From the IMG/VR virus record IMGVR_UViG_2541047887_000008: a stretch of DNA of 56,879 nucleotides. One strand, 5' to 3'. The position numbers were made by a program. Positions 48,001-56,879 of the stretch are shown here, piece after piece; positions within the stretch are counted from its first letter, which is position 1, and every line of letters begins with the position of its first letter. This DNA is from a virus (Duplodnaviria > Heunggongvirae > Uroviricota > Caudoviricetes).

Positions 48001-51000
48001 AATTGCTGTATATCAGGAAAGATTTGCTTACCGGGTATCAGAATTCAACGAAAAACAAAGCAGCAGCAAAAGGACGGAGCGTCGTTACTGTAAATTATTA
48101 CATGACGACAATCGCTGGAATGTTTCAGTTTGCTGCAGATCACGGTTACTTAGAAGCAAATCCCTTCCAGGGAATTAAGCCTCTTAAAAGAGCCAGGGCA
48201 GAGCCAGATCCGCTAACTCGTGACGAATTTATTCGCCTGATAGATGCTTGCCGACATCAGCAGACGAAAAACCTGTGGTCATTGGCTGTGTACACAGGAA
48301 TGCGTCACGGTGAACTGGTCTCCCTGGCCTGGGAAGATATCGATCTGAAGGCAGGAACAATTACCATCAGGCGCAATTATACGAAACTTGGTGAGTTCAC
48401 TCTACCGAAAACTGAAGCAAGCACAAACAGGGTTGTGCACCTTATCCAGCCCGCTATCAGTGTCCTGAAAAATCAGGCTGAAATGACAAGACTGGGTAAG
48501 CAGTACAACATCAAGGTGCAACTACGTGAATATGGACGTTCAGTGAACCATGAATGTACTTTCGTGTTTAACCCTCAAGTGGTTAGAAAAAGCGAACAGG
48601 TAGGTTTTGTCTACAAAGTCGATTCTGTAGGTGACTCATGGGAAACAGCCATTAAGCGTGCAGGGATCAGGCATCGAAAGGCATACCAGTCACGACACAC
48701 TTATGCGTGCTGGTCATTATCTGCCGGAGCAAACCCAAGCTTCATTGCCAGCCAGATGGGCCATGCAAGTGCCCAGATGGTATTCAATGTATACGGAGCA
48801 TGGATGACTGACAGCAATGCAGAACAGATCGCAATGCTGAATCAGAAGCTGACAGATTATGTCCCAATGATGCCCCATAGTCACCAAAGTGACACCAGAG
48901 GCTTATTAAAATCAGTAAGTTAATCCTTAATACCCGTCATGTTAACTGCGTGGAGGGTAACACCACGCTTTATGCCCTGCCGAAACCCGAGGTTGTCCTG
49001 CGCTGGCGTGAGCAGACCACAGATGACTTCCGCTTCTGTTTTAAGTTTCCGGCGACCATTTCGCATCAGGCAGCATTACGGCATTGCGATGATTTAGTGA
49101 CTGAATTTTTGACCCGCATGTCACCGTTGGCTCCGCGCATTGGACAATACTGGCTGCAACTGCCTGCCACATTCGGCCCACGGGAGCTGCCTGCGCTTTG
49201 GCATTTTCTCGATTCTCTTCCCGGTGAATTTAATTATGGGGTGGAAGTCCGCCATCCACAGTTTTTCGCCAAAGGGGAAGAGGAACAAACGCTTAATCGC
49301 GGTTTACATCAGCGCGGCGTTAATCGGGTGATTTTTATTAGACACGTTTAAATACACTACCTAAAGCGATACAATCTAGGTATCAGTTTTGAGGTGGTAA
49401 ACAATGAAACGTGTCATTTCATACATTCGTTTCTCATCAGAGAAGCAAGCTAAAGGCGACTCACTCCGCAGACAATCTAAGATGGTCACTGATTGGCTTA
49501 AGGCTCATCCTGAGTACTATCTGGATGAATCCCTTACTTTTCGTGATTTAGGCGTTAGCGGGTTTACTGGTAAGCACTTGAAAGGTGGCTTAGGTGACTT
49601 TTTAACCGCTATCGAGAAAGGGCTTGTTAAAGCTGGTGATACGCTCTTGATAGAATCTCTTGACCGTTTGTCACGCCAGAACGTAGACCGAGCAAGTGAG
49701 CTATTACGAAACATTCTTCGCTCTGGTGTAGATGTAGTCACCTTGTCCGATGGTGAACATTACACACGAGAATCTCTTAAAGACCCGTTAGCTCTGATTA
49801 AAAGCATTCTGATAATGCAGCGGTCGCATGAGGAGAGTTTGAGGAAGTCTGAGCGTATACAAGCTGCATGGAACCGTAAAAAAGAACTCATCTCTGAAGG
49901 TATCAAGATTTCTAAACGTTGTCCTGCATGGCTTAAGCTTAATGATGACCGTAAAAGCTTCTCTGTGATACCTGAGAAAGTGGAGACTGTGAAGAGGTGC
50001 TTTCAGCTACGGTTAGAGGGTAAGTCTATCTGGGAGATTGTCAGAACTCTTAATGATGAAGGTCACCAGTCGATGAGCCAGTATAAGCCGGGTTCATTTG
50101 GTCAAAGCTCAGTACAAGACCTTCTGAAGAATCGCTCTGTAATTGGTTACTTCACACCTAAAGGCTGTGAGGAGATAGCTGGTTATTATCCTGCAATTAT
50201 AGATGAAACAACATTCTACAAAGTTCAACAACTATCACATTCTCGTTATGGAAAGAGGTCTGTTTCAGATAAACCATTGAGTGTGAATCTCTTTAAAGGT
50301 GTTATCCGTTGTTCTGAATGTGGTCATGCTCTGATTATCACAGGCTTTAGCGATACAAGAAACGGGATTTATCGTTGTCCTCTTCGTAATGAAAACCGTT
50401 GTAGTGCTAAAGGGCTGTCACGTAAGCAAACCGATGGTACATTGCTTGCCCTGCTATCTCGTCTTGACCGATTTGATAGCGATACGACGAATACCATAGA
50501 TACGCTGAAGCTACACCGTGAACACATCTCAAGCAATATAGAAAAGCTGGTACAACTATCACTGGAAATTGAAGACTTGTCCGCTATTACCAGCAAACTA
50601 AGACAGTTAAAAGGTGAGCTATCACAGGTTGATGCTGATATCGAGAAGGAGACACAACGCCTTAAATCTATTGATGTGGGTTGTTTGTCTGATTGTGACT
50701 TGACTACAAAGGCGGGAAGGATTGAAGCACAACTGATAATCAAAAGTGCTGTTAAAGAGGTCGTTTTAAATACTGCTAAACGTCGCTGTAAAGTGACTTT
50801 TCACAATGGTAGAGCAATCACCTTACCAATAACAGAAACCCCCTCAGAGGACGTTACAGAGGCTATACAGTCGCTTTCTGAAGTCACTGAGAGGGGGTTG
50901 ATAGATGTTGATGAGGTTATCATATAGTTGAGATTCTATCGTCAGAATCGCTTGTTAGGATTCACACTAAACTTCTTCAAAGTACTACCTGTACCAGCAT

Positions 51001-54000: not shown

Positions 54001-56879
54001 ATTCATATTTTTTCACCTCTTTAAGCGTGAGCTACGTAAAAAATAATTTTTGGTGGGTATATCTGTTCAGGAGATTTCACGTAGCACATATACAAAAAAG
54101 GGAGAAACTACCGATATCACTCGATAATCTCTCCCCGTGTTATAGATTCGATAGAACCTATCTCATACACCCAACCAATCTTTTTTAATGCCTGACAAGA
54201 TAATGTAGTTCCGTTTCACCTATAATTTGAGCATCGGAAGGGATACGGTCGATACACCACTTTGGAATCTTGCGTGTTTTTGGTTTGCGTGAGGTGATAA
54301 TTTGATGTTTGGTTTTAATTCTTAAGGTTGGCTTATTTTGTAACTTTAAGCTTTCACAAACAGACCGAATAGTTTCATAGCGTTCTGTTAAATCAATCAT
54401 TCATCACCTCACATATGCATAATTAAACAGCCTTGCTAAATTCTCGTGGAACACTCAGAAAATCATTGAAGCTGATAATCTGTGCCAACTCTTGACGGTA
54501 CTCCTTAGCCAGCGCTTGATGGTCACTAATCAGCTTAGCCAGTCTTGATTTCAGCAAATTAATCTCATTTTCTCTTGCTTTCATCAGTTTCTCTTTGGCA
54601 ATTTCTTCAAGCTCAGCTTGTGATTTATCAGCAACAATTAGAGACAGTCGATGTGGTGCTCTGACAGCTCTTTCTGTACGAACAACTCTTTGACCTTCTG
54701 GTAAATCTGCAATCACTTTACCAATCTCTACAGGGTCATACCCCCAACCATCACGGTCTAGTCGAGAGAAATAAGCATAAGAATTGGTTTGAAGCTCCAT
54801 CAAAATAGCCATTTCGTCAATTTCGTCTTCAAGCTTGGACTGAATTTTCTCGTAAACACTTCTCATTGCTTCTTGAGAGTCTCGAAGGTCTTTGAAATAT
54901 TTGCGTTGCAGCTTCAGTTTCAAATCAAGCTCACATTCCTCATTCATCGAAAAATCAATTTCAACTCTTGGAATCTCGATTGGTTCTGGTGGAATATATG
55001 GACCTTTATTTACTTCGTGCGATTCCCGCCAAGCTCTATCAAAAGATTCACGCAAAGTTAATTCGTGAATATCAAGTGCACTTGGTCTGTTCTCAACAAT
55101 CATTTCGTGTTCATTACGAATGGACATTAATATTTTCCTCTTCTAGGATAATTTATGTTTCAGTTTTTAAAAAGCACACCTGACAGCCTACAAACTTAGA
55201 AGAGGCTCAAAAGGCGGTTTGCCAAGTATGCTTTTTAAAAGCTGAAAAAAGCCCTAAACATAATCTGTGAAGGGCTTTGAAGGTTTGCTTTATAACGTTA
55301 ACGAAGTTTCAGGAAAAACTTTCTTTAAAAGCTCTGTTTAAAAACTCTTAAAGAAACGCCCTAACTCATGATTAGGGCAAAGCTGTAAGGGTTCAATAAT
55401 GAATGATTAAGCACTTTTTGATATATAGCCTATCTAGTGGGCTAAATAGGCCATGTAGCGAAAAGCATTGCACCTTTCAGAATAACTATCCCTAGATGTA
55501 GATGGAATTGTTGAAAGAAATAAGAGAGAATTGCTCTCCCATACTTAAAATTATGGCATATTTAAGGTTATTTGTCAACAGCTTTTTAACAGATTGGTAA
55601 CATCAATTCTTATTTACCGTGTTACCTACCCAGCAACCAACAAATAAACCCAAAGCTGTCCAAGCAATTATTAAGCCCATTAATGCACCACCTTCGAATC
55701 CGTAACCAAAATATTGTCAGCGTACAAAATTGCTATAGCTGCCTTGAGATATTTTTCAGGGCTAACGCTGTATTTGTTCGTTTGCTCGATAACCAATCTT
55801 TTCATATGGCTGTCTTTAATTGGTAGCATCATTCGAGGCTCGTTAAACTCCACCGACTGAATAAAGTCAGAGATGTTTTCTGCATTATCAGCCATCAGCT
55901 TTAGTAATTTATCAAAATTAATTGCGATACCTACATCAGTGAAGTGTTGAAGCATGGTCACGGTGTCGTTATCAACAAAAATCTGTAATTCGTAATTGTT
56001 CATTTTTAAATTCCTCTAAAACACATCTCAGACCTCTTAAAATAGCCATTCTGAGGCCAGTAACCATGCGGGTTACAGAGGGAGTTGCACTGGCTGGTAA
56101 GGTAATTTATCAAATTAAGGTGCAACTCTGCCTGTAAAGTGCATTCTACCGTTACTTAGATGGTTATTTTGAATTGTCTTTATTAATCAATGATTTAACG
56201 TAGAAATACTGTCTCCGTGAAATACCATATTTTTCTGTGATGTATCGCTGAGATTGACCAGCATTTATGGCCTGAGTGATATCATCACGGTTATAGCGGT
56301 TACCACGGGATTTATATTTGTCACCATCCACATCTTCTGAGGTATTGAAGTCTTCAATCAGCTTAATTGCATTGCGAAGGTCATCTTCTGAGGCATAATC
56401 GAAGGTATGGATAATCTCAAAATCACCAGTATCTGCTGGTGCATTCTTCCATCTGGAGAAGCGGGATTTTAATTGCTGGTGTGTGAAGGGTTCAGCATTA
56501 CGAGTTAAATCTTTCCATGTTCCGTTATTCTCACGGACAAGATGACCTCTATGGCGATAAAACGCATGATAATCAAATGTGCATAGCATTAAACCTCCAA
56601 TTTATCAGCAAGCTTGCAAACCTTATCGCTCAAGACCTGAATCATTGAGCAGCCTGTACCTTTAGTTTGTGTTCTCAGTTCATCCAATTGCTCTACTGTG
56701 ATACGGATAGCCTTAGAACCCTCTGCAACGTCCTTGATAGCGTCAAACGGTGTAAGGGCTGTGTGTTCCTTCAGAATCTCACCAACAAGTGCTGTGTGGC
56801 TCATGGCTGGGTATTTGTCTTTGATTGCTGCCAGTCTGGAATATGCCTCTGGCAAAAGGCGCGTAACTGTGTGTCTCAT

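Follow-up and report, generated by a model that had tools for sequence, protein, structure and literature searches.

A mobile island in yecE of Escherichia coli that shares tail genes and non-coding DNA with Felixounaviruses, and its possible role as a phage satellite

The IMG/VR virus record IMGVR_UViG_2541047887_000008, a stretch of 56,879 nucleotides (nt) that we refer to as the window, ends in a mobile island that interrupts the chromosomal gene yecE of Escherichia coli from position 49336 onwards. From our comparative analyses of its genes and its non-coding DNA, we favour, with some reserve, the view that this island is a phage satellite, or a satellite-like interference element, functionally coupled to virulent Felixounaviruses (Felix O1-like myophages). 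This view is based on the combination of a large serine recombinase, a replication module with TACAG repeats, a mimic of a Felixounavirus genome end, a regulatory block of the helper type and two helper-compatible structural proteins, namely a tape measure protein (TMP) and a tube initiator. As is usual for satellites in general, the element has a serine recombinase and a winged helix-turn-helix Rep/O-like protein and lacks a full set of virion genes. Its link to a helper lies in a block resembling the boundary of the phage's direct terminal repeats (DTR), a block resembling the region between Felix O1 genes 40 and 41, and the homologs of TMP and tube initiator, all of which are Felixounavirus-specific and whose function we infer. 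An earlier reading of this DNA from its letters alone (the sequence-only reading) had proposed a degraded prophage, a satellite that hijacks helper tails or a tailocin-like element. The satellite is the best supported of these three; a mere hijack of tails does not fit, since the island encodes two internal tail parts of its own.

Extent and integration of the island

Homology to yecE (DUF72; E. coli K-12) runs up to 49335, and the first base of the island, 49336, is 4 bp from the position (49340) near which the sequence-only reading had placed a sharp drop in composition. The drop is real but gradual, with a GC content of 0.48-0.50 at 48750-49250, 0.41-0.44 across the recombinase gene and 0.36-0.40 further right. 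Flanking att sites were searched for and found, and the left end of the island is made up as follows.

49329..49335, no strand: attL crossover core TGATTTT, the last 7 bp in common with intact yecE, recurring at attR
roughly 49310-49360: attL half-sites
49404..50927, plus strand: large serine recombinase of 507 amino acids (aa), the island integrase (Pfam and PHROG)

The att sites are short and have the 7-bp core common to attL and attR, as is characteristic of serine integrases. The reconstructed attP, GTGCATTTAGACCTTGATGATTTT joined to TATTAGACACGTTTAAATACAC, forms an imperfect dyad some 46 bp long, as expected for such an integrase. The attL junction is identical in a second yecE island locus (L001), and the same junction occurs in other strains. 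The recombinase itself was correctly recognised by the sequence-only reading: it contains the domains Resolvase (PF00239, E 7.7e-20, residues 4-160), Recombinase (PF07508, E 2.8e-15) and Zn_ribbon_recom (PF13408, E 3.6e-07), and it matches the integrases of PHROG 95 (E 4.7e-78). Its residues 7-15, YIRFSSEKQ, provide the nucleophilic serine near residue 10 of the catalytic domain, and the C-terminal Recombinase domain and zinc ribbon of the class are both present. Recombinase identity is 90-95% among the islands in yecE and 36-37% in comparison with islands at other sites.

The window cuts the element off, as had been noted. The public contig L023 (GCA_000460235.1, KE701612.1) is 100% identical to window positions 41879-56879 and continues for another 3,643 bp of island sequence until it meets the 3' part of yecE. 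The whole island thus measures 11,187 bp, and the window holds its left two-thirds; coordinates beyond 56879 are extrapolated from this contig. Genes for capsid, portal, terminase, sheath, tube, wedge, fibre and lysis functions were all missing from the complete 11,187-bp island (Pfam, PHROG and comparison with the Felix O1 open reading frames, ORFs). Their absence from the full element excludes both a tailocin (R-type bacteriocin) and a conventional prophage truncated by the window. Some yecE islands have an additional 306-aa ORFan beside attR (L001 31220-32140), a difference of about 1.2 kb that is absent from the island of the window.

Two tail genes of the Felixounavirus type

Two genes of the island encode homologs of phage tail proteins. 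Only one gene lies between the TMP gene and the recombinase gene, as the sequence-only reading had observed.

50942..51736, minus strand: tube initiator, homologous to Felix O1 gp68 and typing phage 1 gp018; 264 aa if translation starts at TTG (51736), 257 aa if it starts at ATG (51715)
51879..54002, minus strand: TMP, 707 aa, with Felixounavirus-type termini and a diverged middle

The 264-aa protein matches Pfam Dit_like (PF21821, E 2.6e-19) and, as expected of a tube initiator, PDB 9ndy_A, 'Tube initiator protein (gp018)' (E 1.7e-114). It is 71.5% identical at the amino acid level to the product of the gene directly downstream of the TMP gene in 260 Felix O1-like phage records. Across the islands, tube initiators have 67-83% aa identity to Felixounavirus gp68 and about 50% to the homolog of a Hafnia phage of the Ounavirinae, while gp68 is about 98% conserved within Felixounavirus. 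At the nucleotide level, the gene is 81% identical to Felix O1 44139-44687 in the island of the window and 92-93% identical to Felix O1 over 510-560 nt in some sister islands, which implies recent recombination with the phages. Two records of the phage collection (MG065664.1 and OK283618.1) bear host labels that look doubtful and may reflect contamination or mislabelling: the one named 'Campylobacter phage A132' encodes a Felix O1-type tube initiator that matches the island protein exactly as the Felix O1 protein does (71.5%, same score), and the one named 'Listeria phage LPML1' encodes a TMP of the Ounavirinae type.

The 707-aa protein is a genuine TMP homolog, with matches to TMP_3 (PF20155, E 1.3e-20), TIGR02675 (E 1.3e-14) and PDB 9ndy_F, gp017 (E 2.5e-61). 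Since, in addition, the extended sequence contains no conventional prophage, neither of the findings that would have overturned the earlier interpretation was made. Identity to the Felix O1 TMP is 27-33% overall and 62% over the first 40 (to 45) aa. The C-terminus, LLSSSYPEEE, is identical to that of Felixounavirus, the last 30 nt of the gene are 97-100% identical to Felix O1, and the Hafnia phage differs at the termini. In contractile tails, the ends of the TMP dock in the tail-tip complex and at the top of the tube. Among all ORFs of Felix O1, only those of TMP and tube initiator match the island. Their products in Felix O1, gp67 (TMP) and gp68, have been identified as virion proteins by mass spectrometry (PMC3185647).

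Compared with the Felixounavirus tail-tip core (gp017/gp67 and gp018/gp68; PDB 9ndy), the island proteins are direct homologs encoded in the same gene order, with conserved TMP termini. In the phage, however, the TMP stop codon overlaps the start of gp68 inside a full tail module, whereas the island pair stands alone, with the two genes about 140 nt apart, an island-specific control element between them and a terminator ahead of the TMP gene; the middle of the island TMP has diverged to about 30% identity. The ratio of non-synonymous to synonymous substitution rates (dN/dS) is 0.17-0.38 for the TMP gene and 0.11-0.20 for the tube-initiator gene, even at dS above 1. We conclude from these low ratios that both are working genes under purifying selection and not relics. 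Many island copies have insertion sequence (IS) elements inside the TMP gene, belonging to IS1203/IS629, IS3, IS5, IS21 and IS66 (for example L005, E. coli O157:H7 Vac_07.1, 6630-10021).

Non-coding DNA shared with Felixounaviruses and the right part of the island

The part of the island beyond the window contains about 1 kb of non-coding DNA next to the following features (extrapolated coordinates).

57199-57489, minus strand: ORF of 96 aa
57489-58439, minus strand: Rep/O-like winged-helix protein, 316 aa, with HTH_36 and an acidic repeat tail
58803-59465, minus strand: Dam-type methylase fused to a helix-turn-helix domain
59526-59588: block resembling the Felix O1 gene-40/41 region (non-coding match)
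59619-59781: block resembling the Felixounavirus DTR edge (non-coding match)
60522: attR

For the non-coding stretch of the island between attR and the Dam gene, matching non-coding sequence is present in 253 phage records, almost all of which bear Felix O1-like names. Block (a) consists of 63 bp with 86% identity to Felix O1 21578-21638 (E 2e-7 against 2.3 Gb) and is located in the island 61 nt upstream of the Dam-Rep operon. In Felix O1 it corresponds to the divergent regulatory region that separates transcription unit 40-24 from unit 41-79, the latter of which comprises the packaging and morphogenesis genes (PMC3185647).

Block (b) measures about 165 bp; its collinear counterpart in Felix O1, 13289-13452, lies within a 1.6-kb gene-free region between genes 23 and 24. 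The Felixounavirus Pr103Blw was found by PhageTerm to have direct terminal repeats of 581 bp (PMC8303462), and its record annotates these repeats at both ends. Block (b) aligns to Pr103Blw 531-694 and thus spans the annotated right repeat end (581/582). An alignment of seven diverged islands and four phages revealed four invariant sub-blocks separated by differing spacers, with the motif TACYWAGCAG straddling the annotated repeat end; the phage record RPN213 was opened inside block (b). The block is present in 409 of the 5426 complete E. coli genomes, including island variants without block (a), and hence is a core cis element of the island family. It is a candidate packaging or terminal-processing signal, with other cis roles possible.

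The 316-aa protein has matches to the replication-initiator PHROGs 270, 428 and 678. In the attR-proximal non-coding DNA (L023 3482-4420), TACAG occurs 10 times (z 9.2), and these repeats make the region a candidate origin with iterons. The terminal repeat region of the Felixounavirus Pr103Blw (L028 1-720) contains TGTTA 19 times (z 14.7), a motif that differs from the TACAG of the island in a similar layout.

Distribution and mosaicism of the island family

Related islands were detected in 492-501 of the 5426 complete E. coli genomes (about 9%, or about 1 in 11), always in the chromosome, at yecE and at other sites with different recombinases. Relatives also occur in Shigella and Citrobacter, and the size of family members ranges from 10 to 13 kb. 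The core, as compared across fifteen loci, runs from c4 through about 550 nt of non-coding leader to c3, c2 and the genes of the TMP and the Dit-like protein, usually with that of a serine recombinase next in line. TMP identity among islands is 48-94%, and the family is strongly mosaic. Some variants contain HNH or HNH-AP2 homing-endonuclease-like genes, and HNH genes are also frequent in the genome of Felix O1.

The matches in IMG/VR have identifiers in the style of isolate genomes or are metagenome contigs with chromosomal flanks. A metagenome contig of 11,186 bp was considered as a circular copy of the island and rejected, the length being a coincidence: its ends do not overlap and its flanks are foreign. 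Likewise, SpLE2 of strain Sakai (13.5 kb, O157) is not this element; it is a CP4-44-like island elsewhere, and yecE is intact in Sakai. Since SpLE2 is another island, the reported lack of excision of SpLEs (PMC2669165) does not apply here.

No description of this island was found in the full-text literature searched. In an in silico study, three virulent Felixounaviruses (vB_EcoM_DE7, VSe11 and SP116) were reported to have a recombination tract of 544 bp in common with chromosomes of E. coli or Shigella, at loci where PHASTER saw no prophage, and the element was not recognised there (PMC11069274). Judging by its size and by the type of phage and host, we presume this tract to be the tube-initiator patch described above.

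Other genes and control sequences in the window

The remainder of the island within the window is organised as follows.

51789..51868, minus strand: conserved element of about 75 nt, copy 2, preceding the tube-initiator gene (nhmmer E 2.8e-22)
54014..54090, minus strand: copy 1 of this element, directly upstream of the TMP ribosome-binding site (nhmmer E 9.4e-23)
54099..54136, minus strand: strong hairpin resembling an intrinsic terminator, with a 16-bp stem and a T-run, between the 71-aa gene and the TMP gene (terminator scan)
54185..54400, minus strand: c2, small basic protein, 71 aa, in all islands
54423..55127, minus strand: c3, core gene, 234 aa, mostly long helices predicted
55245..55578, minus strand: structured RNA (leader or small RNA), about 300 nt long, with an intrinsic terminator at its end, just before c3
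55578-55550, minus strand: near-consensus sigma-70 promoter, TTGACA-17-CATAAT with TG, score 11/12
55603..55680, minus strand: hydrophobic mini-ORF of 25 codons, MGLIIAWTALGLFVGCWVGNTVNKN, overlapping the c4 stop codon (TAATG)
55680..56003, minus strand: c4, core gene, 107 aa
56164..56589, minus strand: accessory protein, 141 aa, in some islands only, with a weak C-terminal helix-turn-helix (HTH_28, E 0.1)
56589..56879, minus strand: accessory protein, 96 aa, its start codon formed by the final three nt of the window

The element of about 75 nt has the layout TGCTACGTGAAATCT..ATACCCAC..AAAAAT..TTTACGTA..CACGCTTA, with two ACGT-centred inverted half-sites, a ATACCCAC box and an A-tract. It occurs in only two copies in the window and is located upstream of the tube initiator in every island examined. 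A function as RNA was considered and discarded, the consensus fold reaching only -4.7 kcal/mol without convincing covariation; the element is probably a protein-binding control site. The hairpin upstream of the TMP gene is kept in all islands. With terminators and one copy of the element for each tail gene, the tail genes look insulated and separately switched.

The sigma-70 promoter is invariant in 12 islands. The RNA that follows it is unannotated, is conserved in all islands examined and recalls the leader/CI RNA control of P4. In the consensus structure predicted by RNAalifold (-59.6 kcal/mol), 11 of the 72 pairs show compensatory changes, and the loop of its terminator tolerates a 30-nt insertion. 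Rfam contained no family match, returning only a sub-threshold plant miRNA. The mini-ORF is kept as an ORF in 12 of 12 islands with varying sequence, and its product could be a small membrane peptide or toxin.

The sequence-only reading had listed, next to the 707-aa and 257-aa proteins (the latter 264 aa from the upstream start codon), several minus-strand ORFs of no recognisable family, and this description was confirmed. The small island proteins had no matches in Pfam or NCBIfam at lax thresholds, and c2 had none in PHROG; the island as a whole had none in PADLOC. Two allele classes of c3 exist, with about 25% identity between them, in a family that is restricted to E. coli, Shigella and Citrobacter and has 12 representatives among 1.84 billion proteins. 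The AF2 model of c3 consists of long helices throughout, at low confidence (pLDDT 55). For c4, 3387 clusters were found, every one of which is named hypothetical; its AF2 model has a pLDDT of 47 and its secondary structure is beta-alpha-alpha, twice. Weak evidence of this kind suggests that c4 is possibly a tandem ribbon-helix-helix DNA binder. The idea that c3 and c2 are counterparts of the Felix O1 tail chaperones gp65 and gp66 was rejected, with an hhalign probability of 0.1 for both.

Nearly all of the window to the left of the island (1-48929) belongs to a lambdoid prophage, whose tyrosine integrase gene (47610-48923) abuts yecE. It encodes a gpJ-like tip protein, a lambda-type TMP, major capsid protein E, a gpA terminase, DnaB, Rha, a DNA methylase and a NanS-p-like esterase. 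Its insertion point lies near nt 74 of yecE (window 48930), so that yecE has been hit twice, in tandem. The same tandem of prophage and island occurs in at least five other loci (L009, L010, L011, L013 and L016).

Comparison with known satellites

The closest known analogues of the island are PLE with its helper ICP1 and P4 with its helper P2, although we do not assign the island to PLE, the P4-like elements, the PICIs or the cf-PICIs. The background on PLE follows in part PMC9410903 and PMC9638900. Both PLE and the island are small (about 18 kb and 11 kb), have a large serine recombinase and their own replication initiator, and consist mostly of ORFans. Both have exchanged sequence with a virulent myovirus, which is the partner of PLE and would be that of the island. 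They differ in host (Vibrio cholerae for PLE, E. coli for the island) and in helper genus, and induction and transfer have been demonstrated for PLE, whereas for the island we infer them. General Pfam and PHROG scans gave no names of PLE core genes (RepA, TcaP, NixI, CapR), no direct comparison with PLE proteins having been made, and these scans indicated no protein homology beyond the class of recombinase. No TMP or tube initiator is known from PLE, and no terminal-repeat-boundary mimic is known to have been described in it.

P4 resembles the island in its size of about 11 kb, in having a copy of a helper packaging site (cos in P4, a putative DTR-edge mimic in the island) and in its helper-type late control regions. 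In both, a constitutively promoted, structured leader RNA with terminators precedes the operon, which in the island recalls the CI RNA immunity of P4. P4 has a tyrosine integrase and the alpha primase-helicase; its Sid, Psu and delta proteins act on the capsid of a temperate helper, and it encodes no tail proteins. The island, by contrast, has a serine recombinase as its integrase, and no P4 families were detected in it by Pfam and PHROG scans.

The cf-PICIs are similar in that the satellite encodes some virion parts and takes the rest from the helper, as the island would do. However, they produce capsids and packaging machinery themselves and take nothing but tails from the helper, the reverse of the island content, and they have a tyrosine integrase instead of a serine integrase. 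No markers of PICIs or cf-PICIs (tyrosine integrase, AlpA, Pri-Rep, TerS, capsid, portal) were detected in the island. Tail assembly inhibition (Tai) and other interference systems of satellites and prophages are likewise encoded on mobile elements and target helper tail assembly (PMC11364771). Nothing in the searched text of that paper presents Tai proteins as homologs of phage structural proteins, and no sequence relationship to the island was found.

Proposed life cycle and alternative explanations

In its resting state the island is quiescent, and its tail genes look insulated by terminators. If it is indeed a satellite or satellite-like interference element of Felixounaviruses, its control regions would, upon infection by such a phage, switch on the Dam-Rep operon and the tail-gene cassette, the phage-responsive regions presumably being the copy of the gene-40/41 intergenic block and the 75-nt element that is present twice. 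The island would be excised by the recombinase and replicated by the winged-helix Rep-like protein. The non-coding mimic of the terminal-repeat boundary suggests that the helper terminase would recognise island DNA and package it into helper capsids. The phage-specific termini of the TMP and the purifying selection on both tail genes point to a replacement of gp67 and gp68 by the island TMP and tube initiator in the baseplate/tube-initiation complex of the helper. Such a swap of the tail core would result either in tails suited to the island or in spoiled helper tails.

Several observations weigh against this proposal. Only the right DTR boundary is mimicked, its position derives from a single PhageTerm-annotated phage record, and the packaging role of the mimic is an assumption, as the block could equally be an origin, promoter or terminator. 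Genes for capsid-size redirection, a small terminase and known interference genes were not recognised in Pfam, PHROG and PADLOC scans, most of the island proteins being ORFans. The 75-nt element has no copy in Felix O1 (nhmmer), nor in other phages, where only chance Aeromonas matches were obtained, which weighs on the idea that the phage controls the tail genes. Moreover, the tails of myoviruses join their heads independently, so it is not obvious how a private TMP benefits the island specifically. The IS insertions in the TMP gene of many copies indicate that the tail cassette is dispensable for persistence. Finally, no circular or virion-derived island contigs were found among the IMG/VR matches.

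The main alternative, conceivable though in our judgement unlikely, is that the island is an anti-phage defence island that moves by means other than phage-borne transfer, in which the TMP and tube initiator act as dominant-negative tail decoys and the DTR-edge mimic as a decoy or trap for the terminase. Phage-specific TMP termini and a near-identical tube initiator would suit a competitive inhibitor, and the fast-evolving middle of the TMP, the two allele classes of c3 and the heavy mosaicism resemble an arms race. Packaging and capsid genes were not found by Pfam and PHROG, and tail-assembly interference is already known as a defence strategy (PMC11364771). A pure defence locus, however, would not need a replication-initiator module with iteron-like repeats beside a mimic of a terminal-repeat boundary, and the island gave no PADLOC matches. 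The mimic is, furthermore, the most conserved non-coding part of the family, which fits better with a cis role for the island's own DNA. Interference and satellite life styles are not mutually exclusive, as P4, SaPIs and PLE illustrate.

We regard as improbable an integrative element of unrelated function, into which Felixounavirus fragments were passively taken up by recombination and where they have no role. Patches with up to 93% nt identity do show that recombination with phage occurs (see also PMC11069274), and the TMP gene is often disrupted by IS elements. Yet islands whose divergence exceeds a dS of 1 still retain the same four pieces of phage origin, with dN/dS of 0.11-0.38 for the tail genes, and invariant sub-blocks persist within otherwise diverged non-coding DNA. 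The pieces stem from three separate phage regions and have been rearranged into a fixed island architecture, and tail genes that abut in the phage have, in the island, acquired a terminator and, twice, a dedicated control element. More improbable still is the degraded remnant of a once-complete temperate Felix O1-like prophage, to which the recombinase, two adjacent tail genes in phage order, the Dam methylase and the Rep/O-like protein might be ascribed. Against this earlier suggestion stand a bounded unit of 11.2 kb with intact att junctions, the recurrence of the same compact architecture at several loci and in about 9% of genomes, the lack of even a remnant of any other Felix O1 gene inside the island, and the purifying selection on the tail genes. 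In addition, all matched Felix O1-like records are phages of about 86 kb from a group described as virulent, which argues weakly against a temperate ancestor. A tailocin or a fragment of a contractile injection system, forming a headless particle, would account for the presence of a TMP and a tube initiator. We give this last of the earlier suggestions hardly any credence, because the sheath, tube, hub, spike, baseplate-wedge, fibre and lysis genes are all absent from the complete element.

Implications

Taken to its full extent, the satellite interpretation leads to a proposal that we put forward only tentatively: the islands may constitute the first satellite family of a virulent myophage in E. 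coli, and the first satellite with its own TMP and tube initiator. Such an element would excise, replicate, be packaged by way of the boundary mimic, leave the cell with the island tail core and cripple the helper progeny, and would thereby form a dedicated anti-Felixounavirus system in about 9% of E. coli strains.

For Salmonella as well as for E. coli, Felix O1-like phages are among the classic agents of diagnosis and biocontrol, and they have been widely proposed for biocontrol and typing. An island present in about 1 of 11 complete E. coli genomes could explain strain-level resistance or poor phage yields, and could carry DNA from strain to strain by way of a 'strictly lytic' phage. Satellites known so far either modify capsids or provide them; one that brings in a TMP and a tube initiator instead would represent a new mode of parasitism or interference, by substitution of the tail core. 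The boundary mimic also pinpoints a candidate packaging signal for this group of DTR phages, a type of signal not described in the literature examined. Gene flow between virulent phages and bacterial chromosomes, which was earlier apparent as an unexplained 544-bp tract (PMC11069274), would now have a structured source.

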